Below, piece after piece: positions 4,572 to 32,210 of a stretch of DNA of 35,198 bases. The stretch comes from a virus. Taxonomy: Duplodnaviria; Heunggongvirae; Uroviricota; Caudoviricetes. The stretch's first letter is position 1, and each line of letters starts with the position of its first letter. The stretch lies in IMG/VR virus record IMGVR_UViG_2548876963_000010. One strand, 5' to 3'. Both the position numbers and the translations under genes were made by a program. Under the pieces are notes generated by a model, which saw only the letters and a program-made list of their open reading frames with translations, ran no database searches and was not told where the DNA came from.

Positions 4572-4802
4572 TTACGCGATTTTCTGCTTTTGCAGAAATT
4601 GCCCGCGTGTGGATAGCGGTATGTGTATCTTAGGATTCGGGCAACCGCTGGGTACTACCGTTCCCATCACGGTCTCCATCGCGATAAATGAAAACGAACA
4701 GTTAACGTTCTTGCACTGGTAATAGAGCTTACGTACCAGCGGTGACATATATTCGCTGCTGCGAATTATCGCCTTACCGTCGCAGTGTGGGCATTTCATC
4801 AT
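4572..4802 (-). CDS. ogr: Ogr/Delta-family zinc-finger late transcription activator
   Basis: MMKCPHCDGKA...YYQCKNVNCSFSF matches the C-x2-C...C-x4-C Ogr zinc-finger pattern (P2 Ogr has CPLCQH...HQCQNVNCSATF); strong RBS TAAGGAGA 6 nt upstream of ATG at 4802; the listed ORF start at 4820 is a GTG inside the RBS. Confidence 0.85.
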   Translation of the reverse strand: MMKCPHCDGKAIIRSSEYMSPLVRKLYYQCKNVNCSFSFIAMETVMGTVVPSGCPNPKIHIPLSTRGQFLQKQKIA

Positions 4803-4838: not shown

Positions 4839-5045
4839 CTAACGCTTTTCGTTAACGGACTGACGAAATAGTGTGATGCCGTTCAAAAAAATGATTCTTG
4901 CCATGCTGGACATCGAACGGTTCTGCTCCAGCGCTAATGCTTCCAGTTCCGCGATTTCAGCGGGGAGCAGACGCATTGCCACCGGTTTGTTCGACATCAC
5001 CCCGCGGGGTGCTCGTGAGCGTAAGACGTTCTCATTTGTTTTCAT
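4839..5045 (-). CDS. Small ribbon-helix-helix-like protein, putative Cox-like early regulator
   Basis: 68 aa ORF divergent from XRE gene; segment VAMRLLPAEIAELEALALEQNRSMSSMARIIFLNGI has beta-strand/helix/helix pattern of Arc/CopG family; start uncertain (5045 or internal Met at ~4997). Confidence 0.5.
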   Translation of the reverse strand: MKTNENVLRSRAPRGVMSNKPVAMRLLPAEIAELEALALEQNRSMSSMARIIFLNGITLFRQSVNEKR

Positions 5046-5125: not shown

Positions 5126-5464
5126 ATGAAAGAATTTGGCATCCGTTTGAAGGAAGAACGTATCCGACTTGGACTTGATCAAGACGGCTTTGGACAACTT
5201 GGGGGCGTGAAGAAAAACGCACAAAGCAACTATGAGAATGGGTTGCGTAAGCCGGACAGTGACTATCTTGCTGGCATAGCGGCAGCGGGAGTTGATGTTC
5301 TGTATGTTCTAACAGGCAACCGCACGCCTGTAGTTACGTTGTCCAGTAAAGAGAGTGTGTTGGTGGAAAACTATCGTTCTGCTACGCCAGAACACCAGTC
5401 CACCCTTGACACGGTTAGCGCTGCGCTTGCGCAACCGGGAGTAGGGAAAGCAGCTAAGGGATAA
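5126..5464 (+). CDS. XRE-family helix-turn-helix regulator, putative immunity repressor (C-like)
   Basis: 112 aa; N-terminal HTH-like region with QSNYENGLRKPDSDYLAGIAAAGVDVLYVLTG; divergent arrangement with RHH gene across an 80-bp AT-rich switch region. Confidence 0.7.
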   Translation: MKEFGIRLKEERIRLGLDQDGFGQLGGVKKNAQSNYENGLRKPDSDYLAGIAAAGVDVLYVLTGNRTPVVTLSSKESVLVENYRSATPEHQSTLDTVSAALAQPGVGKAAKG

Positions 5465-5504: not shown

Positions 5505-6077
5505 ATGAAGTTGAATAATCTGGTTGCTCTTTACAGGAACATGACAGAGCAAAAATTGGATAGGGTTAAATTCCCATACAGACACAATAATTTACATTTT
5601 GATGTATTTTTCTTTATTGATGGAAAACCGTTTGAGCTTCTTTTCGGAGCATTAGGCGCTAATCTTTGCTTTCGTCTAAAAGTCGAGAAGGGATTCGTCA
5701 TAAATCCTAATCTGGGAAGTGAGACTTATAAAGAATTATGCAAGGCTCTAGGTTTGAAATATGACCCTGCCAATCCATTTAGAACAAGTAAGTTTTTTGA
5801 AGATTTTGATGGGAAAATCCCTCCATCGGTTACTGTTAAGAATAAGGCAAAATATACTGATATTGCTGTGCATGTCAGGGATGTTGAAGAAGCAGACAGA
5901 ATATATTTCTGTGGATGGAAAAACAACAATGAAGAAAAGAGTCATGTTACTGAAGATAATTTAAAGAAAACGAAAGAGTTTTTAGGGTATCAGGCTTTTC
6001 TTGTTTGTAAGGAAAAGAATATTAGCAGTAGATGGACTGATTTAGAAAATAAAGCGAAAGATTTTTATTTACCATAG
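5505..6077 (+). CDS. Hypothetical protein (190 aa), first gene of AT-rich cargo cassette
   Basis: ORF with GGAGG RBS 8 nt upstream; markedly AT-rich codon usage compared with flanking phage genes; no motif recognised. Confidence 0.6.
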   Translation: MKLNNLVALYRNMTEQKLDRVKFPYRHNNLHFDVFFFIDGKPFELLFGALGANLCFRLKVEKGFVINPNLGSETYKELCKALGLKYDPANPFRTSKFFEDFDGKIPPSVTVKNKAKYTDIAVHVRDVEEADRIYFCGWKNNNEEKSHVTEDNLKKTKEFLGYQAFLVCKEKNISSRWTDLENKAKDFYLP

Positions 6078-6091
6078 GATTGTGAGGTTAT

Positions 6092-7240
6092 ATGTCTGAT
6101 ATTTCATTAGGGTGCGTGGTTGTTCATAGGTTGATAAAAGAGCAACATAAAGATTTCGATCACTCAAAACCATATAGTCGCCGTGATACGGTTCTTGACC
6201 GAAATAATGAAATCGTAATTAAACTAGTGTCCAGTATAGCCGCATTGTATGGTAAAAAATCTAATAGCTCGCATTATGGTATATTTAATTTAGATGAAAC
6301 ACGTAGGGGGCCTTTTCCAGCGGCATTTGATAAATATCGGAATGATACATCCAAGAAGTTAGACGATGAATTGTTTATAGGATTATCAAAAAATGTTATG
6401 CATCAGTTATATATTGAGGCAAAGGATCGACCTGCTGCATCAGGAGGATTACTTCTTTTTGCTGATTATATCAGTAAATCCGTGCGTTACTTTCTTATTG
6501 CAATGATTAAGCAAAAGGAAGGTATAGTTATTAGTGATAAATTAGAACCAAAGGAGTTAGAGCATCTTGATCTGGCAAAACTAAATCAGGCGGCACGAAT
6601 AAACTATGATTTGTATGATAAATATATTTCCGCTGATGAGAATGAAAGACAGGATGTTAATTATTTAAGTTTTGTTAGTCCCAGTTCTAACCAGACAACT
6701 TCAGGGTATTTCATTACTGCCTTAGGTTGTGATAAAGGTAATACATCAACTAAAGCTACGAGTAATTTAATTAATGAATCTTTTAACTTCTTCAGAAATC
6801 ATCAAGAATTAAAGGATAATGCCCGTAAATTTAAAAATGAAATTATTGAGTATTTATTCGATTGTTCTGAGAATAACATTTCAGCTAAGCTCTCTGTTGT
6901 TAGTGAGATGGCAGCGAAGCATATGGTTAATTTAGAAGATGACATTAAAGATAAATTGTCAGAAGAATTATATGCTCATTTGAATAGTGAAAGTATTCGT
7001 GTGCCTGTGGAATTTAGGGTAAGCAAATCAGTAGTTAAGAAAAACAGAAATATTAAATATACAAGTGATAATGTTAATTTTGAGTTTAAATCTAGTTTAC
7101 TAGGCAATACGCTTGATAATGAGATATGCTATAATAAGAAAACTGGACATTTAACTTTTACTCGGATTACTCCTGAGAAAAAAAGTGAAATAGCTCAATT
7201 GCTTGATGAGTTAATAAAAGAAAGAAATAGCGAAAAATAA
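6092..7240 (+). CDS. YejK/NdpA-like (nucleoid-associated protein family) protein, 382 aa
   Basis: N-terminal VVVHRLIKEQHK (cf. E. coli YejK ALHQLIKRDEQ, recalled from memory), SIAALYGKKSNSSHYGIF (cf. ELHRVYSAKNKAYGLF) and ASGGLLLFADYISKSVRYFLIAMI (cf. [24 protein letters not shown]); RBS GTGAGG upstream. Confidence 0.6.
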   Translation: MSDISLGCVVVHRLIKEQHKDFDHSKPYSRRDTVLDRNNEIVIKLVSSIAALYGKKSNSSHYGIFNLDETRRGPFPAAFDKYRNDTSKKLDDELFIGLSKNVMHQLYIEAKDRPAASGGLLLFADYISKSVRYFLIAMIKQKEGIVISDKLEPKELEHLDLAKLNQAARINYDLYDKYISADENERQDVNYLSFVSPSSNQTTSGYFITALGCDKGNTSTKATSNLINESFNFFRNHQELKDNARKFKNEIIEYLFDCSENNISAKLSVVSEMAAKHMVNLEDDIKDKLSEELYAHLNSESIRVPVEFRVSKSVVKKNRNIKYTSDNVNFEFKSSLLGNTLDNEICYNKKTGHLTFTRITPEKKSEIAQLLDELIKERNSEK

Positions 7241-7251
7241 GGTTGCTTAAT

Positions 7252-8508
7252 ATGTCATGTTTTGAAACGGTTGTTGAGCTTTTCAGATATGTAGGGCGTC
7301 CTAAATTTGATGCTATTAATAATCGTTTTTCAGCAACTATTTCTTATGATGCTCATATATATGAACTCTTAGTTTCTTTGCAACCTCATACCGCGTGGGG
7401 AGAAATTGAAGAGATTGTCATTGATGATGTGGATATAGATGTTGATGATAGCCTTCCCGCTAAAGGAACATCAATAACACTGACAATCTCTATATCAACT
7501 GGAGCCAGTGAGTCATTTTTTATCGATATTAAAGATCTAATTCAAAAGTCTCCGATGTTAAATAGAGGTATTTTAAGAAAGTCTTTTTACTTGGTTGAGG
7601 AAGATTTTTATTTTAATGAAGGAATGGTTGAGGGATTAGCAAAAATACCAGAACTATCTGTTTTAAAAAATCTTTGTGATTTTATTTTATGTCTATCAAA
7701 AGTTGCACACTACAGCAATAGTAAAAGTGATGATGTATGCCATAAGTTAGTTTTCTTGAAAAATACTAATGCTAAGTCATTACCTTTAATTATTGAAACT
7801 AATGTTGATTATTCACTTCTTTTAACAGGTATTAAGGATTTAAAAATCATCGAATCTTTTTCTGATGAAAAAAAAGCTATAACGGATGATAATTATTTTG
7901 AGCGAAAAGGGATTTTCATTAATACGGTGGTCGATTTTCTTGAATCAATCGATGTAAAGAAACAGTTTCATTTTTTATTCTGTGAGTGGGATGAATTTCT
8001 AAAACTATACCATAATAACCTCGGTGTATATCTTAGTGGTTTTTCATTTCATAAAGTAAGAAAGGAAGTGGCAGAGGCAGAAGCTAATTTAGCTGAGCGT
8101 TTTTCAAAAATAATGTCAGACATGATAGCTAAGCTTTTAGGTATTCCTGTTTCTTTGGTTGCTACTTTTGGCATGATAAAATTAAATACCCTGCCGGAAA
8201 TGTTAGTGGTTTTTTTAGGTGTATTGCTCACGTCGATAATTATGTTTTTTATTGTAAGAAGTCAATACACACAGTTTAGGATGATTTGTGATGCTAAAGA
8301 TATTATATTTTCCCCATTAGTGAAAAAATCTGTAGGTTATACAGAAGATTTGAAAAAATTAGTATGCAATGCAAAGGATAATTTAGACAAAAATCAGGTC
8401 ATGTTAAATCGTTACCTTCTTTTCTTTCAATGCTTATGCTGGATTCCGACAGCCTTAGGTGGTGGAATGATCTTAATGGCTATTATGGTTCATTTAGGAT
8501 TACTATAA
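7252..8508 (+). CDS. Hypothetical protein (418 aa) with C-terminal transmembrane helices
   Basis: ATG at 7252 (listed ORF starts at a TTG at 7243); hydrophobic stretches IPVSLVATFGMIKL...MLVVFLGVLLTSIIMFFIV and YLLFFQCLCWIPTALGGGMILMAIMVHLGLL at the C-terminus; AT-rich. Confidence 0.6.
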   Translation: MSCFETVVELFRYVGRPKFDAINNRFSATISYDAHIYELLVSLQPHTAWGEIEEIVIDDVDIDVDDSLPAKGTSITLTISISTGASESFFIDIKDLIQKSPMLNRGILRKSFYLVEEDFYFNEGMVEGLAKIPELSVLKNLCDFILCLSKVAHYSNSKSDDVCHKLVFLKNTNAKSLPLIIETNVDYSLLLTGIKDLKIIESFSDEKKAITDDNYFERKGIFINTVVDFLESIDVKKQFHFLFCEWDEFLKLYHNNLGVYLSGFSFHKVRKEVAEAEANLAERFSKIMSDMIAKLLGIPVSLVATFGMIKLNTLPEMLVVFLGVLLTSIIMFFIVRSQYTQFRMICDAKDIIFSPLVKKSVGYTEDLKKLVCNAKDNLDKNQVMLNRYLLFFQCLCWIPTALGGGMILMAIMVHLGLL

Positions 8509-13845: not shown

Positions 13846-15024
13846 TTACACGGTGGTGGCGATGGATTCAGCCAGATTGACCAGATAGCGGTCAGTAATG
13901 CGCTGGCGGAACATCAGGTTTTCCAGCGGCGGCACCGGGGTGTAGTCGTAGTCGATATACGCTTTACCCGCTTTCAGGATGTCCGGCGTGTTGGCGGAGG
14001 GATCGAACCATGCGGAACCATCGACGATGTAGCCGTTGCCTTTCAGTTCGCGGAATTTGGCGTTCACGCCTTCGATAATGTCGCGGAACAGAGAAGCGTG
14101 TTGCGGTTTATCTACCGCCCAGAAGTGGGCGTCGGCGATGGTATCCGCCAGCACCTGCGCGGTGCGGGTGTAGTTCTCAAAGGCAAACAGCGGATCGGTG
14201 CTGCAGGTGCGCGATCCCCAGAAGCGATAGCCGCCGTTGCAAATCAGCGTGGTGACGTCGTGGCTGTTGAGGTAATCCGAATCGGTGGCGGTGGACTGCA
14301 GATCCCAGAATACGCTGCGGGAAATGCCAGTCACGCCGTTGACGTCAACGTTGGACAGCGTTTTATGCCAGCCGATTTCTTCATCAATTTTTGCACGCAG
14401 GCCCACGGCACGGGCGGTGGCGTACAGCGTGTGTTCGGCAGCAGCCTGCGTATCAAAGCCGACAAAATCCGGCCAGATAATCATCGCCTCCCGTGCGCCG
14501 AGCTGATCGCGATACAGCACCGCCTCTTCTTTGGTCTGCGCGCCGAACGCCGACAGATAGCTGAAGGCGCGAAGCTGCTGTGAAATGCTGACCAGTTCGG
14601 TGGCGACAGGCAGAGAATCCAGCCCCGGTACCGCCAGAATGCGCGGTTTTATTTTCAGTTTGGTTTGCGAGTCCAGCAGCGCCTTCATGCCGGTGTATTT
14701 CCCGGCTGGCGTGCTGCCGCCGATGATATTGGCGGTGGTTTCGGCGGCGGAGTCGCCTTCGGCTACGCGCACGGCGACTACCACCGGCTGCGTCTGGTCG
14801 GCGATGGCATCCAGAGAGTGCGCCAGCGTACCGCTATCACCGGCTTTACCCAGCGCAGATCGCACGTCGGTTAACAGTACCGGGGTATCAAGGGGAAAGG
14901 TTTTTTCATCGGCGTCTGATCCGGTGCAGACGATGCCGATCACGGCGGTGGAGATGGTACGGATCGGGCGTACGCCTTCATTGATTTCAATAACGCGCGC
15001 GCCGTGGTGGTAGTCGGTTGCCAT
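13846..15024 (-). CDS. FI: Tail sheath protein (P2 gpFI-like)
   Basis: Start placed at ATG 15024 (MATDYHHGARVIEI...) preceded by GGAGG; ~393 aa; first gene of tail operon. Confidence 0.9.
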   Translation of the reverse strand: MATDYHHGARVIEINEGVRPIRTISTAVIGIVCTGSDADEKTFPLDTPVLLTDVRSALGKAGDSGTLAHSLDAIADQTQPVVVAVRVAEGDSAAETTANIIGGSTPAGKYTGMKALLDSQTKLKIKPRILAVPGLDSLPVATELVSISQQLRAFSYLSAFGAQTKEEAVLYRDQLGAREAMIIWPDFVGFDTQAAAEHTLYATARAVGLRAKIDEEIGWHKTLSNVDVNGVTGISRSVFWDLQSTATDSDYLNSHDVTTLICNGGYRFWGSRTCSTDPLFAFENYTRTAQVLADTIADAHFWAVDKPQHASLFRDIIEGVNAKFRELKGNGYIVDGSAWFDPSANTPDILKAGKAYIDYDYTPVPPLENLMFRQRITDRYLVNLAESIATTV

Positions 15025-15087
15025 AGGGCTGGCCTCCATCAGGTCAATAAATGACGATGGTGGCACAGAGCGAAAAGGGCGGTGACG

Positions 15088-15124
15088 GCTTCCACTTGTA
15101 ACCACTGGCACTACAAGCAGAAGC
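15088..15124. promoter_or_regulatory. Late-promoter-like dyad upstream of FI operon (TGT-N13-ACA within 13-bp imperfect inverted repeat)
   Basis: gcttccacTTGTAaccactggcacTACAAgcagaagc; TGT 15097-15099, ACA 15113-15115. Confidence 0.55.
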
Positions 15125-15129
15125 GGTTT

Positions 15130-15888
15130 TTAATTCAGGATAATCAGTTCTGATGTGGCGCTGGCTGGCTTTCCGCCTACGGTATAGCGAATCCCTACCG
15201 TTGAGAATGTCAGGCCGTGGAAGATATCGCGCATTTCCGGGATGTCATTAACCGAGATAATCATCCGGCCCTGCATGGTGCGCGCCAGCTCTGCCATTCG
15301 CTGGTACTGCTCAAGGCCAAATGGTACGCCGTAGCCTTCGGTTTTCCAGTATGGAGGGTCGCAGTAGAACAGGGTATGCGGGCGGTCATAGCGGCGAATA
15401 CATTCGGCCCAGTCCAGATTTTCAATACAGACGCGCGCCAGCCGCAGATGGGCGGCGGATAAATCCTCTTCCATACGCAGCAGGTTCAGGCGCGGCGGTG
15501 AGGTGGTGGCGGTACCGAATGTGCGACTTTCCACTTTGCCGCCGAATGCCAGCTTTTGCAGATAGTAGAAGCGCGCCGCGCGCTGGATATCGGTCAGCGT
15601 TTCTTCCGGGGTGATCTGGAGCCAGCGGTACATTTCGCGGCTGACCAGCGACCATTTAAACTGGCGGACAAACTCTTCTAAATGGTGCTGGAGTACGCGG
15701 TAGAGGTTGGTAACGTCGCCGTTGATATCATTCAGCACCTCGGCCTGTGCGGGCTGTTTCATAAAGAACAACGCCGCCGCCCCGCAGAACGGTTCAACGT
15801 AGCAGCGGTGTTTGGGAAACAGCGGCAGAATGTGTTTTGCCAGCCTGCGCTTACCGCCGATCCACGGAATAATGGGTAACGTATTCAT
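15130..15888 (-). CDS. dam: DNA adenine methyltransferase (Dam/D12 class N6-adenine MTase), orphan
   Basis: 252 aa; SAM-binding motif EPFCGAAALFF and catalytic DPPY in FYCDPPYW; no adjacent restriction endonuclease gene. Confidence 0.9.
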   Translation of the reverse strand: MNTLPIIPWIGGKRRLAKHILPLFPKHRCYVEPFCGAAALFFMKQPAQAEVLNDINGDVTNLYRVLQHHLEEFVRQFKWSLVSREMYRWLQITPEETLTDIQRAARFYYLQKLAFGGKVESRTFGTATTSPPRLNLLRMEEDLSAAHLRLARVCIENLDWAECIRRYDRPHTLFYCDPPYWKTEGYGVPFGLEQYQRMAELARTMQGRMIISVNDIPEMRDIFHGLTFSTVGIRYTVGGKPASATSELIILN

Positions 15889-16352
15889 ATTGTCAATTTT
15901 CCAGATCGACTGCAGATCAGTGCATACAGCAGATTAGGTGAATAACGCCAGCTATCACGCAGATGCAGAAATTCGGCGCAGAACTCGCTGCAAAACAGGC
16001 GCTCCTGTTTGCCCTGACTGAGTAACACAAAACCAATGGCACCCAGCCAGTCGTAACCTTTATCGTCGTGCTGACGGAAAAAGGTTTCCAGTGCCAGCGG
16101 ATCGGCGTTGATCGGGAGTAAATCCCATTTCTCAATCGGCAGCGGCATTCGTTTGCTGCGCACGCCTTTATCCCGTACCGATGATGAGTAACAGATAAAC
16201 AGGCCATCCGGCTGGCGTTCGACCAGTTCGCAGTGAGAGTAAGGGCCGCGCGTGACCTGTCGCGTCAGCCAGTCGGAGAGCCGGGCAAGGCTGAAAAAGC
16301 GTTCAGCCCGGCCACGGTAGAACGCCGCGTAAACCTGACTCATGGTTGCCAT
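15885..16352 (-). CDS. Hypothetical protein (155 aa) co-located with dam
   Basis: ATGA-overlapped with dam start, 13-bp overlap with G stop; Cys/His-containing (YSHCELV, CSEFC) but no family recognised. Confidence 0.55.
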   Translation of the reverse strand: MATMSQVYAAFYRGRAERFFSLARLSDWLTRQVTRGPYSHCELVERQPDGLFICYSSSVRDKGVRSKRMPLPIEKWDLLPINADPLALETFFRQHDDKGYDWLGAIGFVLLSQGKQERLFCSEFCAEFLHLRDSWRYSPNLLYALICSRSGKLTI

Positions 16353-17047
16353 CCTGACGAGTAGTCGTAACCCATAACCGCCTGCACCTCCGTCAATACT
16401 TCAACGGCGGCAATATGCTGCTGGGCAGCGGCGAACAGGCGCATATCGTGCGCCATTGTTTCGGTTTCAAACCGGGCGGCGATTTCGTTGGTCAGTTCAA
16501 TCAGGTTGTGATTTTTGGTCTGCCACATTAAGCCTGCCGGTATTTGTTTAGCCACGCCCATTTTGGTGAGCGAGAGCTGCTGGATGCGGCTGTTAGCGTC
16601 GCTGTGGAAATGGTGATTATCGATGATGATGTAGTCGGCGGTGATTCGATCGCGATACTGCTTTATTTCTGCCACCTTTGCCTGTCGGGCTTTTTCGATA
16701 TCGGGCCGCCAGCGTTTGCCGTCCCAACGGACAAAGGCGTTATCGGGCTTCAGCAGAGTGACGTTATCCGGCAATGGCCCCAGATGATGAAGCTGTACCT
16801 CACTGCCCGCATCGGTATCAAACGCGGTTTTACCGCGATGATCTTCTACCGCAAGCCATGTTTCTCCGTTGAATGTCAGGGCAAAGCCGCTCTGGCATTC
16901 GGGCGGTTCGATAGTGGTACAGCATTCCGGTAAGCCGGTGTTGGGGGCGATATAGACGTCGCTGACGCCGATAAATTCCTGAGTATCTGCCGCGTAGTTA
17001 AAGATGCGCAGGGTTTGCGGTTCGTCGGAAAATGCGAATGTGCTCAT
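16340..17047 (-). CDS. G: Tail fiber assembly protein (P2 gpG-like)
   Basis: 235 aa directly downstream of tail fiber gene with 4-bp overlap. Confidence 0.8.
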
Positions 17048-25846: not shown

Positions 25847-26014
25847 TCAAGTGAAAAGGCTAAAACAGATCAGTACCAACTTCGTCTTGCTCATGAATTT
25901 AGAAAGCAGCTTGAAGAACAGGCTCGTAAAGATGGAGATACCTCTCTCGCAACATGGATAAAACGCGTTTTGCGTAAGGAACTTCAGTCACGAGGTATTG
26001 AACCCAAAGGATAA
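25844..26014 (+). CDS. Small ribbon-helix-helix (Arc/MetJ-like) DNA-binding protein, 56 aa
   Basis: Not in supplied ORF track (below its length cutoff); MSSEKAKTDQYQLRLAHEFRKQLEEQARKDGDTSLATWIKRVLRKELQSRGIEPKG: beta-strand then two helices as in Arc. Confidence 0.6.
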   Translation: MSSEKAKTDQYQLRLAHEFRKQLEEQARKDGDTSLATWIKRVLRKELQSRGIEPKG

Positions 26015-26115
26015 TTACGGAGATATCAAGCAGCGCTAAGAAGTTAGGATTATTTGTTCAGCCCAGATTAGTCGATATGCACTGATTAACTTAAACATTG
26101 TGTGTAGGAGGTGTT

Positions 26116-26769
26116 GTGGATATTGAATTTTTTCTTAAAGAGCGCACAAGATTCGTTACTTATTTCTATGAAACGGCTGCTGCACCATTTGTTAACATCA
26201 TGAATGATATTGAGAATGAAGTGGAACCTTATATTCAGCCGTATGGTGAGAGTGATGAACCAGCTTTTTTAGATGAATGGTTAGATGCAAAGTCGGGATT
26301 AGAAACCTGTGGGCACCATGCATTATCGATGCTTTCGTCTTCTCTTCAGTTGTACCTGAAGGCGTGGGTAGATCGCTTAGGATATCATAGCGTGAAATCT
26401 GATATAAATTTCAAGAAGGGTTGGTTTAATGGCTATCGTGAAATTTTCAACAAAATTGAGTTGGAAATGGCAAAATGTCCTGCAAATTTGGAAATAATTG
26501 AACAAATTCCCTTGGTGAGAAATCGTGTCCAGCATCCTGAGGAACTTACCTCAATTAATATTTCTCACTCAAAAAATGACTTGGAAAAATATCCTCGCCC
26601 ATACTTTATTCAGGAGTGTGAGCTACTTTTGGCTTCCGAACAGGAAGAAAAATCGTGGTTATTCCCACCTACAATATCCCCGACTAAAGAGAAAATATTC
26701 GAAGCTATCAGAAATGTTGAAATGCTGTGCTCTTGGTTAGAGTCTGAGTATTGGTCGGCTCTTGACTAA
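26116..26769 (+). CDS. Hypothetical protein (217 aa) with R-x4-H motif, possible HEPN-domain protein
   Basis: GTG start at 26116 with AGGAGG 6 nt upstream (ORF track lists 26098); AT-rich; motif VRNRVQHPEE (R-x4-H). Confidence 0.55.
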   Translation: MDIEFFLKERTRFVTYFYETAAAPFVNIMNDIENEVEPYIQPYGESDEPAFLDEWLDAKSGLETCGHHALSMLSSSLQLYLKAWVDRLGYHSVKSDINFKKGWFNGYREIFNKIELEMAKCPANLEIIEQIPLVRNRVQHPEELTSINISHSKNDLEKYPRPYFIQECELLLASEQEEKSWLFPPTISPTKEKIFEAIRNVEMLCSWLESEYWSALD

Positions 26770-26858
26770 ATGTAGAATAGAGTAAGTCAGCGTCAAATGA
26801 AAACAGCCCGACGAATCGGGCTATTATGGCTATCAGGCAAACACTACCTTCAAACTCA

Positions 26859-27095
26859 TTATGCCGCCTCAATACCCGCTCTGGTTAACATATAGTGGCC
26901 CCAGTGGGTTTTCTTCAGATAACCGGCCAGTTCCATCTGTGTCACAATAAATTCAGCGTTAACTATTTCTATATCTGCGTAGTCGGCCAGATCGCGCAGC
27001 GGCCATGTGCTGCGAACGCCGACGCTAACTATGGTATCTCTGATGCGGCGAGCGGTATCGGTCATTGGGCGGGTTCTGGCTGCCTGAATAGTCAT
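26859..27095 (-). CDS. Hypothetical small protein (78 aa), possible winged-helix DNA binding
   Basis: ATG at 27095 with GGGGAA upstream (listed ORF begins at a GTG at 27134); not part of canonical P2 L-X interval. Confidence 0.45.
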   Translation of the reverse strand: MTIQAARTRPMTDTARRIRDTIVSVGVRSTWPLRDLADYADIEIVNAEFIVTQMELAGYLKKTHWGHYMLTRAGIEAA

Positions 27096-27210
27096 GGTAT
27101 TTTCCCCTGTAAGTTCTTTCGTTGGGTCAGACACTAACTCTGGTGGGGAAGGGGCATCCAGCGTTCAGATGAGGCGATACGGTGATGCGCATCGCATATC
27201 CGTACTCTTT

Positions 27211-27678
27211 TTATACCAGAACAAACGTGCTACGCGGCTTGCCCAGAATATCCCGCACTGCGAAGCGGGCATCGCGCGCCAGATCGTCGGCGGTGCTTTC
27301 CTTTTGTTCCACCAGTTTGCTGCCGTGGGCGGTGGCATCAAAGTTACGGTAGCGTTCCAGCAGGTTTGCGTGCGTCAGGCTGTACACCGCGTGGCGGTAG
27401 CGGTGCAGGTTAACGCTTGCGCCGTCCAGTCGTTCGGTCGTGGTTTCCGCAATGCAAGTTGTGCCACGGTTTTCCTGTTCCAGCCGCCATTCCCGCAGGT
27501 CGTCGTTTACGCTGGCCAGCGCAATCAGCAGCGCCTCGCGCAGCCGTTCGTTGGTGACGGTGCTGTCCAGCCGTTGGGTCGCACGCAGATGTTGCGTATC
27601 AATATCGGGAAAGAAAGGGTGGTTGCTGATAACCAGCCCCGGCAGACTGGCGGCGGGGGCAACCTGAATAAAGCTCAT
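27211..27678 (-). CDS. L: Head completion/stabilization protein (P2 gpL-like)
   Basis: Start placed at ATG 27678 (MSFIQVAPAA...) with GGGAGAA RBS; follows M as in P2. Confidence 0.75.
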   Translation of the reverse strand: MSFIQVAPAASLPGLVISNHPFFPDIDTQHLRATQRLDSTVTNERLREALLIALASVNDDLREWRLEQENRGTTCIAETTTERLDGASVNLHRYRHAVYSLTHANLLERYRNFDATAHGSKLVEQKESTADDLARDARFAVRDILGKPRSTFVLV

Positions 27679-27763
27679 TATATTCTCCCTGTTCGGCGGT
27701 GGACGGCGGGCGTTGCAGTGGTATAACCACGCGCGGCCAGCCGTGCCGCCGGTCGTGAGGGTC

Positions 27764-28417
27764 TCACTCGGTAGGCTGACTGTTGCGAATTTGTCGCTCC
27801 AGTTGCTCAATCAGTTTTTTCACGCCGACGTTCTCATCCAGTTGTAGCGCGCGCTGGAACTGCGCCAGCGCCTCCTGCGGCTGGCTTTCGCTGTGTGCCA
27901 GCCCCAATGCCTTGTGCAGGCGGGCGCGAACCTGATCCGGCATGTCTTGGGAGGCTAACAGTCCGGCAAAGGCCAGCAGGCTGTCCAGCGCCACAAAGGT
28001 ACCGGCGGCAAGCTGTTTCAGAGCGGTGTCGGCGACCTCTTCAGCCACCATGCAGGCGGTCTGCCGTTGGTACTGATCCGGCGTTACCCAGCTGTGTTTC
28101 AGGGCGTGTTCCGCCATGGGGTAGGCAGCGGGAAAGTCGCCGGTATCCAGCGTCCAGAGCAGCACCGTCATAAACACATCGTCCTGCTGTTGGCTGTCGG
28201 CAGCCAGAACGCCGCTTATCCACGGCTGGTAATCGGGCAGCAGTTCACCCTTAACCTCGATTTTGCGTTCAATGGACTGGATCGCTTTCAGGCGGCGTTT
28301 ATCGGTTGCCAGCTTTGCCAGCATCAGTTCATAGCCGCTGGCGTAGGTCTGGTTTTCCTGTTGATTTACGGCCTGCGCCTGATGGCGCAGCAGGTGGCGG
28401 CGGGCAGGCGTCATCAT
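27764..28417 (-). CDS. M: Terminase small (endonuclease) subunit (P2 gpM-like)
   Basis: 217 aa; position after N; 4-bp overlap with N. Confidence 0.8.
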   Translation of the reverse strand: MMTPARRHLLRHQAQAVNQQENQTYASGYELMLAKLATDKRRLKAIQSIERKIEVKGELLPDYQPWISGVLAADSQQQDDVFMTVLLWTLDTGDFPAAYPMAEHALKHSWVTPDQYQRQTACMVAEEVADTALKQLAAGTFVALDSLLAFAGLLASQDMPDQVRARLHKALGLAHSESQPQEALAQFQRALQLDENVGVKKLIEQLERQIRNSQPTE

Positions 28418-29433
28418 GCGTCTTTGTCCTCAAACTTGATGTTTTCAAACAGGCAACCGCAGCCGAAGTCTTCCACCACAAAGGCATCGTTGGAAGACTC
28501 GAAGTTCTCTACCCGGTCACGTTTGGGGTTATCAATAATGGCGCGGCGGCGGGTGCCTTTCTGGACATAGATAGACAGGTTACTGAAGGCGGTGACCAGA
28601 ATGGTGTTGCGCGGGAAACCCGGCACGCGCACGGCAGGGCGACCGCCGATGGTTTTCTGGCTGACCAGAATCTGCCCCGCCAGTTTTTCGCTGTTCTCAT
28701 TGTGCTGGTTGAGGATCGGGAAGTATTTGTCGTGCAGGACGCCACGGCCACAAATGGCGACCAGATCTGCGCCGTCGACATGCCATTCGTCAATCAGGTT
28801 TTCTTCGCCGTCATTGACCATGGCGTCCAGATTCTCATAGTCGCCGCCTTTGCCAATGATGATTTTGCCGGAACCTTCCACACCTTCGTTCATGACGCGT
28901 TCCGGGGCGTGGTCGCGGTACTGCTGCAGCCAGCCTTTGTTAACGTCCTGCAGAAGGGGGTAACGCTGGAAGTCGGTCTGGGCGGCAACGAGGATACCGT
29001 TGAAGCCAATCAGGATGCGGTCTAATCCCTGTCGCCGGGTGATGCTGTCGCGCACGCGGATCTGAAAATCCGGGTGTACGGCCCATGCGTCCAGTTTGGC
29101 GTATTTCAGCGCGGTGTCGTAGTTGGTTTTTTCGCAGCGGTAACGGTTAGTCGTCATTGACGTGGGGTCTACGGGTTCACGCTCACGCTGGCTGGTATCG
29201 GTACGGCTGGCCGTCGGGCGATCAATGCCGATACCGACTTTTTCTCCTTCCTGATCCACCACTTCATGGACGTTGATTTTGGTCAGGAACTCCACGGATG
29301 CCTGAATTTTGGTTTCCAGCGTCTGCTGTACGGAAGGTTCTACCGTGAATTCGACGGCGGCGCTCTGGACGCCGGACAGCCCGGCGACGGTTTCAACGTA
29401 AACGTTGTATTTTAAGCGGGTTTCGTTACGCAT
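28414..29433 (-). CDS. N: Major capsid protein (P2 gpN-like)
   Basis: 339 aa; position between scaffold and terminase small subunit. Confidence 0.9.
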   Translation of the reverse strand: MRNETRLKYNVYVETVAGLSGVQSAAVEFTVEPSVQQTLETKIQASVEFLTKINVHEVVDQEGEKVGIGIDRPTASRTDTSQREREPVDPTSMTTNRYRCEKTNYDTALKYAKLDAWAVHPDFQIRVRDSITRRQGLDRILIGFNGILVAAQTDFQRYPLLQDVNKGWLQQYRDHAPERVMNEGVEGSGKIIIGKGGDYENLDAMVNDGEENLIDEWHVDGADLVAICGRGVLHDKYFPILNQHNENSEKLAGQILVSQKTIGGRPAVRVPGFPRNTILVTAFSNLSIYVQKGTRRRAIIDNPKRDRVENFESSNDAFVVEDFGCGCLFENIKFEDKDA

Positions 29434-29442
29434 CGGGGTTCC

Positions 29443-30270
29443 TTAACAGTCGGTTTTCAGGTCGGTGTTGCCACCGGTGGCAGGCTGGCGCGGTGGTGTG
29501 GCCGGTTGTTTTGCAAGCTGAGTTTTCAGCGTGGAATAATCGGTCTGTAGCTGCTGATGCTGCGTTTGCAGTTTAGATAGCTCCTCGCGGATTTGGTCGA
29601 TCTGCTCGCTACAGAACGTCGCCACTTCCTCCACCGCCAGATGCACGTCGTCCCGTTGCTGGTCGTCGTGGTTCTGCTTTTTACTTAACAGCGCTTTGAT
29701 ACGGGTAAACAGCGATTCGCCGCTGCTTTCCTCCACTTCTTCAAACTCCAGTTCAATCTCTTCTGCCACGCTGAAAATGTTCTCCGGCGAGCGTTTACGC
29801 GCCGCCAGCGGGTTGTTTTGCGCGCTGGCACAGAAGGAGAGCATTTCGGTGCCGAGACTGGCCGGATCGTCGGTGACTGCCAGCCCGACCAGATAGGCTT
29901 TGCCCGTGTCGGCAAATTTCGGATCGACTTCCACCGAGGTATAAACCTTCTGCCCTTTGCGGTTCATTTCGACCAGCGAATCCGTTGGGGCCAGACGCGC
30001 CAGCAGCGCCAGTTTGCCTTTCAGGGGACCGTCTTCGGCGATCTCTTCTTTCTTCACCATCGCCACGTCGCCGTAGCGCTGGAACGGGCCGTCCGGCAGG
30101 ATGCCTTTCAGGTGCTCCAGATTAATGCGCGCGCCGTACACTTTTGGGCTGTATGTATCGGCCATTTGCTCGATCCACTGGCGTTCAATAGTACGCTTGT
30201 CGCAGGTTGCGCCTTCTACGGCGATACGCACCCATTTAGAGAGCAGTTTTTTCTTTGGCTTTTTGTCCAT
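29443..30270 (-). CDS. O: Capsid scaffolding protein (P2 gpO-like)
   Basis: 275 aa, acidic/coiled-coil C-terminal half; divergent from P. Confidence 0.85.
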   Translation of the reverse strand: MDKKPKKKLLSKWVRIAVEGATCDKRTIERQWIEQMADTYSPKVYGARINLEHLKGILPDGPFQRYGDVAMVKKEEIAEDGPLKGKLALLARLAPTDSLVEMNRKGQKVYTSVEVDPKFADTGKAYLVGLAVTDDPASLGTEMLSFCASAQNNPLAARKRSPENIFSVAEEIELEFEEVEESSGESLFTRIKALLSKKQNHDDQQRDDVHLAVEEVATFCSEQIDQIREELSKLQTQHQQLQTDYSTLKTQLAKQPATPPRQPATGGNTDLKTDC

Positions 30271-30340
30271 AACGTTCAGTCCCGGCGTTGGCTAAATAAG
30301 CGAATGGTCGGGTAGTCCTCCGTTATCAGGCAACGGGCTT

Positions 30341-30368
30341 CGCTTGTAATCATCCGGGTTACAAGCGG
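30341..30368. promoter_or_regulatory. Late-promoter-like dyad in divergent O/P intergenic region (TGT-N13-ACA)
   Basis: GCTTGTAA-tcatccggg-TTACAAGC; TGT 30345-30347, ACA 30361-30363. Confidence 0.55.
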
Positions 30369-30425
30369 CATTGCTACGCGCAGGCAGTGGCTTGTTTACG
30401 CTGACGGCAGAAACGAGAGGACGTT

Positions 30426-32210
30426 ATGCCGCCAGACATCGAAAAACATCTGCTTGCCCTTCAGGACGAAGATCCACGCCGCAAAGCCCGCTATCTGTAC
30501 TGGCAGGGTTTTCGCATCGCGCGGATCGCCGAACTGCTGGGCGTAAAAGTCACCACGCTGCATAGCTGGAAGCGGCGCGACGGCTGGGATGAATCCGCCC
30601 CGCTGGAGCGAGTGACGGCGGTGACCGAGGCGCGTCTGATCCAGCTCACGGTGAAGGAAAATAAGGAGGGGAAGGATTTTAAGGAGATCGACCTGCTCTG
30701 GCGACAGATGGAGCGCGGGGCAAGGGTTGAACGCTATCAGCAGGGAGGCAATGAGGTCGACCTGAATCCTGCTCTTGCGAAGCGTAACGTCGGGTCGCGC
30801 AGACAGCCGGAAACCAACCATATCAGCGAGGAGCAGGCGGAGAAGCTGAAACAGCTATTTCTGGACGGACTGTATCCGCACCAGAAACACTGGTACCGCG
30901 CCGGGCTGGAACACCGTATCCGCGATATCAACAAGTCGCGCCAGATTGGGGCGACGATGTTCTTCGGGCGGGAAGGATTTATGGATGCGGTGGAGAGCGG
31001 GCGCAACCAGATCTTTCTCTCGGCCTCCAAAGCGCAGGCGCACCAGTTCCGCCAGTACATTGTCGATTTTGCCCGTGAGGTTGATGTTGAGTTGAAAGGC
31101 GATGTTATCCATCTGCCGCATAACGACGGGCGGATGTATTTTCTCGGCACCAATGCCCGCACCGCCCAGACCTATCACGGCAACCTGTATCTGGATGAAT
31201 ACTTCTGGATACACCGCTTTCTGGAACTGCGCCGTAACGCGGCGGGGATGGCCAGCCAGAAACGCTGGCGGCAGACCTACTTTTCCACGCCGTCCAGCAT
31301 TACCCATGAAGCCTATAAGTTCTGGACAGGGCAACTGTTCAACAAGGGCAGGCCGAAGAGCGAACAGATTCGACTGGATATCAGCCATCGGGCGCTGGCG
31401 GCGGGGCGGCTGTGTGAAGACGGCCAGTGGCGACAAATCGTCACCGTTGAGGATGCCATCAATCAGGGTTATGACCTGTTCGACCTCGAGCAACTCAGGC
31501 TGGAGAACTCGCCGGAAGAGTTCGCCAACCTGTTTATGTGCCAGTTTATCGACGATACCGCATCGGTATTCCCGCTCAGCATGTTGCAGGGGTGCATGGT
31601 CGATAGCTGGGAAGTCTGGGACGACTACAAGCCGTTTGCCCTGCGTCCACTCGGCGAACGCTCGGTGTGGGTGGGCTACGATCCTGCATTAAGCGGTGAC
31701 AGCGCCGGGTGCGTGGTGGTCGCGCCGCCGGTCATTGAGGGCGGCAAGTTTCGGGTAATTGAAAAGCACCAGTGGCACGGGATGGACTTCGCGGCGCAGG
31801 CGGAAAATATCCGCAAAATTACCGAGCGCTATAACGTGACTTACATCGGTATTGACGTGACCGGCATCGGCCACGGCGTGCATCAACTGGTGAAACAGTT
31901 CTTCCCGGCAGTGCAGGCATTCTCTTATTCCCCGGAAGTGAAACAGCGTCTGGTGCTGAAAACGCTGGACGTTGTCCGTAAACGCCGACTGGAGTTTGAC
32001 GCTGGATGGACGGATCTGGCGCAGGCATTTATGGCGATCCGCAAAACCCTGACCCCGTCCGGGCGTCAGGTGACCTTCGAGGCCAGCCGTTCGGAAGAAG
32101 TCTCCCACGCGGATCTGGCATGGGCGTGCATGCACGCCATTATCAATGAACCACTGGAAAGCTCTGGCGGCGCGAACAGCGGGCGGGGCTTAATTAAGGT
32201 GTATGGATGA
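30426..32210 (+). CDS. P: Terminase large (ATPase) subunit (P2 gpP-like)
   Basis: 594 aa; RBS GAGAGG; ATGA overlap with Q. Confidence 0.9.
   Translation: MPPDIEKHLLALQDEDPRRKARYLYWQGFRIARIAELLGVKVTTLHSWKRRDGWDESAPLERVTAVTEARLIQLTVKENKEGKDFKEIDLLWRQMERGARVERYQQGGNEVDLNPALAKRNVGSRRQPETNHISEEQAEKLKQLFLDGLYPHQKHWYRAGLEHRIRDINKSRQIGATMFFGREGFMDAVESGRNQIFLSASKAQAHQFRQYIVDFAREVDVELKGDVIHLPHNDGRMYFLGTNARTAQTYHGNLYLDEYFWIHRFLELRRNAAGMASQKRWRQTYFSTPSSITHEAYKFWTGQLFNKGRPKSEQIRLDISHRALAAGRLCEDGQWRQIVTVEDAINQGYDLFDLEQLRLENSPEEFANLFMCQFIDDTASVFPLSMLQGCMVDSWEVWDDYKPFALRPLGERSVWVGYDPALSGDSAGCVVVAPPVIEGGKFRVIEKHQWHGMDFAAQAENIRKITERYNVTYIGIDVTGIGHGVHQLVKQFFPAVQAFSYSPEVKQRLVLKTLDVVRKRRLEFDAGWTDLAQAFMAIRKTLTPSGRQVTFEASRSEEVSHADLAWACMHAIINEPLESSGGANSGRGLIKVYG

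Follow-up and report, generated by a model that had tools for sequence, protein, structure and literature searches.

Four TGT-N13-ACA inverted repeats as probable operators of an Ogr-family activator at late operons of a P2-like Escherichia coli prophage

The inverted repeat CTTGTA-N11-TACAAG (equivalent to TGT-N13-ACA) is present in exactly four perfect copies in the window, the whole 35,198-bp stretch of DNA analysed here. Each occupies an intergenic gap that precedes a late gene, FI (sheath), V (spike), X, or the divergent pair O (scaffold) and P (terminase), and together they cover the starts of all late operons (head, tail and lysis); the gene assignments, made in a preliminary description of the sequence, are upheld by Pfam. 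We consider it highly probable that the four dyads are operators of the prophage's own Ogr-family activator. Their earlier interpretation as putative Ogr-activated late promoters gains in silico support from the presence of an Ogr/Delta gene, the placement of the dyads, the site shared by O and P, and P2-like distances to start codons. The relevant features are the following:

4572-4802, minus strand: ogr-like gene, 76-aa CX2CX22CX4C zinc-finger protein (Pfam PF04606, Ogr_Delta, E = 9.8e-20)
15057-15065, minus strand: predicted extended -10 of P(FI), TGcCACCAT
15095-15117, minus strand: putative late promoter dyad of FI (FI-FII-E-T-U-D tail operon), CTTGTA-N11-TACAAG, centre 15106
21433-21455, minus strand: putative late promoter dyad of V (V-W-J-I-H-G operon), centre 21444
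21459-21480, minus strand: intrinsic terminator with 9-bp stem and T-run, ending the X...S-hicAB transcript and abutting the V dyad
25106-25114, minus strand: predicted extended -10 of P(X), with the same sequence TGcCACCAT as in P(FI)
25144-25166, minus strand: putative late promoter dyad of X (X-holins-endolysin-LysB-R-S-hicAB), centre 25155
26802-26825, minus strand: intrinsic terminator after L, which would end O-N-M-L ahead of the cargo separating L from the X dyad
30304-30309, minus strand: predicted -10 of P(O), GACCAT, at +45..+50 from the dyad centre
30343-30365, no strand: dyad common to the divergent putative promoters P(O) and P(P), centre 30354
30397-30402, plus strand: predicted -10 of P(P), TACGCT, at +43..+48 from the dyad centre

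The TGT-N13-ACA cores occupy 15097-15115, 21435-21453, 25146-25164 and 30345-30363, precisely where they had been reported, and all four also match the longer palindrome, which has 12 specified bases. With the base composition of the window, 0.0016 exact matches to it are expected in 35,198 bp. Allowing up to three mismatches yields five matches in the whole window against 10.2 expected; the only one that is not a dyad has exactly three mismatches, which is chance level, and nothing intermediate exists. Bare TGT-N13-ACA occurs 13 times (5.7 expected), the other nine occurrences being devoid of the extended arms. Symmetry reaches beyond the core to different extents: the X dyad is the middle of a perfect palindrome with 13-bp arms (25137-25173, positions 6-18 from the centre), the imperfect extended FI palindrome (15088-15124) pairs at 11 of the 13 positions 6-18, and the O/P palindrome pairs at positions 5-13. 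A position weight matrix scan, suggested in the preliminary description and performed with a matrix built from 127 sites of other genomes only, ranks exactly the four dyads at the top (21.1, 18.5, 17.3 and 13.5 bits; next site 6.6), the 13.5 bits of the V dyad falling inside the range of best chance scores in shuffles (maximum 14.5). Because the family sites were gathered with a regular expression derived from the window dyads, some circularity attaches to this matrix and to the family logos; it affects neither the spacing control nor the positional clustering described below.

The four dyads imply five promoters, as the O/P site counts twice: P(O) would read leftward into O-N-M-L and P(P) rightward into P-Q. 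The FI dyad lies 12 bp past the stop codon of a D12 methyltransferase gene and is centred 82 nt ahead of the FI ATG (15024), with the hexamer CACCAT at +44..+49 from the centre and a predicted transcription start at about 15049-15051. The X ATG (25071) is at +84, with a start predicted at about 25098-25100. At the shared site, the O reading frame opens at +84 (ATG at 30270) and the P frame, whose ATG (30426) follows the Shine-Dalgarno sequence GAGAGGA, at +72, with the P(P) start predicted at about 30409-30411; the family-conserved CGTTGCC is found on the O side at +19..+25 (30329-30335). The V ATG (21388) is already at +56, with a -10-like hexamer AATGAT at 21395-21400, and V mRNA is therefore predicted to be leaderless. 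At each dyad the predicted -10 hexamers start +43 to +45 from the centre; they are weak, and at O and P they sit one base out of register. None of the four dyads has a predicted sigma-70 consensus promoter downstream.

Palindromes of this kind could also act as RNA hairpins in read-through transcripts, that is as attenuators or as processing or stabilising stem-loops. The predicted FI and X hairpins are indeed stable (-19.5 kcal/mol, z = -4.0, and -25.1 kcal/mol, z = -7.5, respectively), and the FI dyad is probably transcribed by read-through because it lies so close behind the upstream gene with no terminator between them. The O/P fold, however, is no better than shuffles (z = -1.8), the V dyad is located directly downstream of a true terminator, and the X and V dyads are preceded by unrelated, variable sequence. 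No U-tract follows any of the four, on which ground a terminator reading was rejected as well. The loop is constant at exactly 11 nt, and the TGTA/TACA bases of the arms are invariant over 131 sites in 52 of 80 gpV-related loci with no compensatory changes. We regard this explanation as very improbable.

The candidate activator gene lies at 4572-4802, and its proposed identity is confirmed by a match of 70.7 bits to Ogr_Delta (cut-off 26.3). It belongs to the early leftward operon, where its neighbours on either side are a 68-aa ORF (4839-5045) and the primase gene (1829-4483); the HTH repressor gene (5126-5464) is oriented divergently, and the early gene order around it is the same as in KL3, RSA1 and phiCTX. 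The CX2CX22CX4C pattern is invariant in an alignment with P2 Ogr, 186 B, RSA1 ORF38 and phiCTX orf34, and overall identity to any characterised homologue is only 30-39%. This distance from P2 Ogr, together with the several small DNA-binding proteins encoded in the window, would leave room for late-promoter operators bound by another phage regulator, be it the 68-aa product, the AlpA-like protein or HicB. We find that very improbable, if slightly less so than the hairpin explanation. TGT-N13-ACA sites are present also in RSA1, phiCTX and Acica, all of which have an Ogr homologue; close relatives that retain all four dyads have other cargo in place of HicAB; and a centre near -55 and a shared O/P site are experimentally tied to Ogr/B in P2 and 186 (PMC3152322).

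The dyads had been described as apparently spaced one base wider than those of P2, and this is correct. The consensus given there, TGT-N12-ACA, corresponds to the published one for P2-type late promoters (PMC3931495); we checked it directly on P2 and 186 sequences, which are N12, mostly in the form TGT-N12-CCA. SEN1 and Yersinia phage YenM06.16-2 likewise use N12. N13 is used by phiRSA1, phiCTX, Acica, the KL3 V site and 52 of 80 gpV-related prophage loci, and TGTTGT-(X)13-ACAACA has been published for late promoters of phiRSY1 and phiRSA1 (PMC5694545), a spacing we verified in the RSA1 and phiCTX genomes. All four window sites thus differ from the TGT-N12-ACA operators of P2, 186 and P4 and agree with the TTGT-N13-ACAA pattern found at O/P, V and FI in phiRSA1 and phiCTX; within the Peduoviridae, N13 characterises the operators of the branch that comprises phiRSA1, phiCTX and KL3-like phages. 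A PDB search with the Ogr protein returned no match, and no homologue structure is present there that could give the spacing a structural explanation.

In 1.57 Mb surrounding gpV homologues, TGTA-N11-TACA occurs 131 times at the N13 spacing, against 0-17 times at any one of the remaining spacings between N9 and N17. A typical locus has three sites, one each at O/P, V and FI. The family logo contains a conserved -10-like CACCAT/GACCAT/CAGCAT at +44..+49, and start codons cluster at +56/57, for V in 31 of 42 relatives and for P in 35 of 41 loci. Among the 80 loci, only the one from Edwardsiella (L002) carries four sites. In loci lacking TGTA-N11-TACA, an unbiased search for palindromes with 5-bp arms and spacers of 7-17 was overwhelmed by GC-rich noise and revealed no operators. 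An exact scan of IMG/VR for GCTTGTA-N11-TACAAGC found 120 loci, nearly all with single, presumably chance, sites; the sole locus with two (31.5% GC) has no homology to the late proteins of the window, and the scan is not informative on satellites or relatives.

Among 5,426 complete E. coli genomes, four carry the lineage, which also occurs in Edwardsiella ictaluri. When the late region was compared with a phage collection by megablast, nothing beyond short stretches of about 74% identity to the sheath gene of Ralstonia phages came up; the lineage thus has no available phage isolate. The FI dyad is conserved in the Edwardsiella and E. coli relatives, and the X dyad recurs in Edwardsiella and in two E. 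coli relatives. Natural mutagenesis is seen at V, where the dyads of the window, of two E. coli relatives and of Edwardsiella have identical arms and spacing but four unrelated 11-bp spacers and differing flanks. Homology to Edwardsiella starts at the X and V dyads, upstream of which the sequence is unrelated and the cargo varies among the four relatives; PADLOC found no match among the cargo ORFs. These breaks, including the replaced V spacer, might mean that the dyads are primarily recombination or module-exchange junctions for cargo swaps and only secondarily associated with promoters. We give this no more credence than the RNA hairpins, as the FI and O/P dyads are away from mosaic junctions, the distances of the motif to -10-like elements and to start codons stay constant across distant taxa, and no recombinase is linked to the dyads. 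Junctions adjoining conserved promoters are, moreover, to be expected because selection preserves the promoter.

Taking the dyads as Ogr operators, we propose the following scheme, in which Ogr binding, the start positions and the contact with the alpha subunit are inferred; the biochemistry it borrows comes in its entirety from the N12 sites of P2, 186 and P4. Ogr would be made from the early leftward operon (small ORF, ogr, primase) once the prophage is derepressed. As a symmetric oligomer, it would bind CTTGTA-N11-TACAAG at sites whose centres lie about 55-56 bp ahead of each start and, in analogy to P2 Ogr, use the alpha subunit to bring sigma-70 RNA polymerase to promoters without a usable -35 and with only weak -10 hexamers (CACCAT, GACCAT, AATGAT, TACGCT). 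Five late transcripts would result: FI...D, V...G-methylase with leaderless V, X...S-hicAB, O-N-M-L and P-Q. The X promoter would re-prime late transcription past the cargo hotspot and the terminator, which here break what is a single O-to-S operon in P2.

Late activation by Ogr is a well-known mechanism, which our results leave unchanged, and the N13 spacing has already been described for Ralstonia phages; the sole local novelty is the putative X promoter, which follows a variable cargo hotspot. It would illustrate how a late operon can be re-primed past a cargo and defence hotspot. The predicted late transcription units also make up a full and testable map for a lineage of E. coli P2-like prophages that had not been characterised, and the results show that the textbook TGT-N12-ACA consensus misses much of a family in which TGT(A)-N13(11)-(T)ACA is widespread. 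With an N13 Ogr/operator pair residing in E. coli beside the well-studied N12 systems, this host lends itself to the questions of how small zinc-finger activators recognise half-site spacing and whether the two regulons cross-talk. Tentatively, and with the odds somewhat against it, the N13 operator and its Ogr may form a switch orthogonal to the N12 switch of P2, 186 and P4 inside E. coli, with N13 as the common state of Peduoviridae and spacing as insulation against satellite piracy; if so, there would be no trans-activation in either direction with co-resident P2-type helpers or P4-type satellites.

The likeness to P2 noted in the preliminary description holds for the shared O/P site and for the V and FI distances; it does not extend to X, for which P2 has no promoter. 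Both phages have a zinc-finger Ogr/Delta activator and TGT/ACA inverted repeats, centred at about -55 in P2 and, by prediction, here, without a consensus -35. P2 late promoters PP, PO, PV and PF are activated by Ogr and also by P4 delta (PMC3152322, PMC3931495). Ogr binds inverted repeats centred near -55 and requires the RNA polymerase alpha subunit (PMC3152322), activation by P2 Ogr requiring contact with its C-terminal domain (PMC3152322, PMC11434276). One annotated activator site serves P2 pO and pP, with starts at +/-55.5 bp. The start codons of V and FI are 56 and 82 nt from the dyad centre here and about 57 and 82.5 nt in P2, where the V transcription start is annotated on the V ATG itself, and the P2 PF -10, GAAAAT, lies at +44.5..+49.5. 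The terminator at 21459-21480 has its analogue in the terminator of the P2 O operon, which precedes pV. P2 differs in its imperfect N12 half-sites (TGT-N12-CCA at PO/PP and PF; PV reads TTGT-N11-ACAA), those of the window being perfect, and in the location of ogr, which follows D and has its own promoter. Phage 186 resembles the window in its annotated B sites upstream of late operons (p12/pV, pJ), the p12/pV site being common to a divergent pair, and its B protein is 33% identical to the window Ogr, but its sites read GTTGTG-N-TCCA, i.e. TGT-N12-CCA.

In spacing the window agrees with phiRSA1 and phiRSY1, which have N13 and a TTGT/ACAA core at O/P, V and FI (PMC5694545), the RSA1 motif being itself a sequence prediction. 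Their arms are TGTTGT/ACAACA instead of CTTGTA/TACAAG, they have three sites with none at X, and they infect a different host phylum branch. RSA1 has the closest Ogr among the aligned homologues (39%), an ogr gene likewise placed in the early operon upstream of the primase gene, and a sheath gene 74% identical at the DNA level. In phiCTX and its relatives the X site is also absent; the group differs further in its GC-rich spacers, in the CGCGCGCG tract ahead of the -10, and in P, which is usually leaderless at +56/57 there. At O/P, V and FI, phiCTX itself carries TTGTAG-...-TACAA with N13 spacing. Its relatives among the prophages of Pseudomonas, Halomonadaceae and Azotobacter share with the window the same TGTA/TACA half-site, over the 131 sites, and CACCAT at +44..+49.

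Four perfect copies of the dyad CTTGTA-N11-TACAAG, which corresponds to TGT-N13-ACA, are present in the window, at FI, V, X and between O and P, just as the preliminary description claimed, while base composition predicts 0.0016 exact copies of this palindrome. The prophage is integrated beside yfgI-yfgH in a chromosome of E. coli type and most of its late genes lie on the minus strand. Portal Q, capsid N, L and S were confirmed by Pfam together with the late genes listed here, and late-gene start codons agree with the PGAP starts in a near-identical E. coli prophage.

Late genes (assigned by Pfam) and dyads of the window; + distances run from dyad centre to start codon
1-5464, early/lysogeny module: integrase, AlpA-like, DUF7673, Toprim primase, ogr, 68-aa ORF and divergent HTH repressor
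13846-15024, sheath gene FI
15095-15117, FI dyad; FI at +82; predicted -10-like element TGcCACCAT
20789-21388, spike gene V
21433-21455, V dyad; V at +56; predicted -10-like element AATGAT
24868-25071, gene X
25144-25166, X dyad; X at +84; predicted -10-like element TGcCACCAT
29443-30270, scaffold gene O
30343-30365, O/P dyad; O at +84, P at +72; predicted -10-like elements GACCAT (O) and TACGCT (P)
30426-32210, terminase gene P

The bare motif TGT-N13-ACA occurs 13 times in the whole window against 5.7 expected. When up to three mismatches to the palindrome are allowed, a single extra site appears, with exactly three mismatches and at chance level; the dyad signal is all or nothing. The X dyad has perfect arms of 13 bp, GCTTCCGCTTGTA, the FI dyad pairs at 11 of the 13 corresponding positions, and the O/P dyad over positions 5-13 counted from the centre.

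The candidate activator gene (4572-4802, minus strand) encodes an Ogr/Delta zinc finger (PF04606, E = 9.8e-20) with the signature CX2CX22CX4C. It belongs to an early leftward operon, flanked by the 68-aa ORF and the Toprim primase gene and divergent from the HTH repressor gene. The gene order of this early module is that of Burkholderia phage KL3, phiRSA1 and phiCTX, unlike P2 or 186; ogr would therefore be expressed from the early operon, without a promoter of its own after D.

Ogr binds inverted repeats centred near -55, and the alpha subunit of polymerase is needed (PMC3152322, PMC11434276). In the P2 record one activator site (3057-3087) is common to pO and pP, whose transcription starts flank it at 55.5 bp, and one B-protein site is annotated for the divergent pair of 186; likewise, a single dyad lies between O and P in the window. 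P2 transcription of V starts at the first base of its start codon, a geometry reproduced by the V ATG at +56. The -10-like hexamers begin 43-45 nt from all dyad centres, comparable to the P2 PF hexamer GAAAAT at +44.5, the PF start itself being 57-58 bp from the dyad centre. No sigma-70 consensus promoter was predicted downstream of any of the four dyads. A strong terminator (21459-21480) adjoins the V dyad, paralleling the O-operon terminator ahead of pV in P2. The shared O/P dyad, the position of V and the hexamer spacing agree with the P2-like late-promoter organisation proposed earlier. Within its limits, sequence analysis supports reading the dyads as Ogr-dependent late promoters, and the mechanism would be the established Ogr-type activation, with Ogr binding, start sites and alpha contact all putative. 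A D12-class N6-adenine DNA methyltransferase gene (15130-15888, minus strand) closes the V operon. Its end and the FI dyad are 12 bp apart and no terminator separates them; read-through of V-operon transcripts into the FI operon is therefore probable.

The family was surveyed with a gpV-based scan, one genome per species, yielding 80 loci and 1.57 Mb. TGTA-N11-TACA is present there in 131 copies, and the same arms at each other spacing from N9 to N17 in 0-17. At least one site was found in 52 of the 80 loci and exactly three, at the O/P, V and FI positions, in 32. A weight matrix built only from these foreign-genome sites, none from the window, ranks the four dyads first in the whole-window scan called for earlier (21.1, 18.5, 17.3 and 13.5 bits; next 6.6), with the qualification that its training sites were gathered with the motif itself, which makes logos and matrix partly circular; the spacing control and positional clustering are free of that circularity. 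Alignment on the dyads reveals CACCAT/GACCAT/CAGCAT conserved at +44 to +49. On the O side, CGTTGCC at +19 to +25 ranks with the best-conserved positions of 43 related O promoters and is unchanged in the window (30329-30335, GGCAACG on the plus strand, CGTTGCC on the minus); it may act as a -35-like TTGCC element of P(O) or be recognised by another factor. The ATG stands at +56/57 for V in 31 of 42 loci and for P in 35 of 41, as expected if transcription commonly began some 56 nt from the centre and late mRNAs were often leaderless; recurring in most related prophages (loci L003-L081), these V and P starts imply that leaderlessness would be a family trait. The window V gene (ATG 21386-21388) keeps this arrangement, whereas its P gene differs, with a predicted 5' leader of about 15-17 nt and a Shine-Dalgarno sequence.

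The lineage is present in 4 of 5,426 complete E. coli genomes. The same four dyads are carried by two of the four relatives in E. coli that were examined and by an Edwardsiella ictaluri prophage with 90% identical gpV; homology to the latter begins at the X and V dyads. The 11-bp spacers of the V dyad are unrelated in four genomes (ggataatgggc, tattaagttat, ttgtggatttt, atccagatgat). Because spacers, flanks and upstream cargo vary while arms and spacing stay identical, selection would seem to act on arm sequence and spacing, as for a protein operator. The same variation among relatives argues against an RNA hairpin, even if the dyads at FI and X would fold well: the arm bases never change, a U-tract is absent after every dyad, and shuffled sequences fold as well as the O/P hairpin.

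Two slots ahead of putative late promoters carry variable genes.

Cargo regions of the window and of two related loci, L211 and L212
21495-22090, minus strand, HicA/HicB toxin-antitoxin pair between S and the V dyad; L211 7813-8718; L212 7759-8214
25186-27100, second hotspot, from L to the X dyad; L211 11824-14529; L212 11279-12987

In the S-V slot, E. coli L725 has an AbiTii-like "abortive phage resistance protein" and GMF054 a hypothetical gene. The slot is a cargo hotspot immediately ahead of a putative late promoter. In the window, the L-X hotspot contains a pair of small minus-strand ORFs preceded by a near-consensus sigma-70 promoter (25821-25850, 11/12 matches), and a plus-strand ORF (26098-26769) for which a family search gave no match; in relatives, RelE/ParE or Doc toxin-antitoxin genes occupy this place. 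Elsewhere, a three-gene cassette of 32% GC (5505-8508, plus strand) separates the repressor gene from tail gene D, coding for a DUF6037 protein, an NA37 (NdpA-like nucleoid-associated) protein and a multi-pass membrane protein. PADLOC returned no match for it; judged by where it lies and by its composition, it may be a moron or a candidate defence cassette.

In P2, 186, RSA1 and phiCTX, X is transcribed inside the O operon, whereas the window has a separate X dyad, a fourth site that recurs among the 80 loci only in the Edwardsiella relative. In the window a terminator (26802-26825) comes after L, and the cargo region and the X dyad come next. Since the outer arms GGAAGCC and TGTGCCACCATC are common to both, P(X) may be a copy of P(FI), restoring late transcription past the hotspot.

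The suspicion that half-site spacing is one base longer than in the published consensus proved right: it is N13 in the window versus N12 in P2 and 186 (TGT-N12-CCA; P2 PV is TTGT-N11-ACAA). N12 is also found in Salmonella phage SEN1 and a Yersinia phage, the latter with a perfect TTGT-N12-ACAA, and PMC3931495 quotes TGT-N12-ACA as the published consensus. N13 is found in phiRSA1 (TGTTGT-N13-ACAACA) and phiCTX (TTGTAG...TACAA), in both at O/P, V and FI, in the Acica sites and at KL3 V, and the motif is in print for phiRSY1 and phiRSA1 (PMC5694545). The window element therefore falls in a described operator subtype, and N13 spacing is a known lineage variant. A more novel reading, on the less likely side, is that the N13 regulon would be insulated in this host from its N12 counterpart in P2, 186 and P4. 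P2-like Shewanella phage M16-3, in the regions inspected (around 23459-23610 and upstream of V), is without a TGT/ACA dyad at late promoters. Between its O and P genes stands GGTAT-N10-ATACC, a sign that the half-site sequence of Ogr-type operators, and not their spacing alone, has probably diverged. The only local peculiarities are the perfect site symmetry, the extra putative X promoter and the fact that an operator of this type occurs in E. coli.
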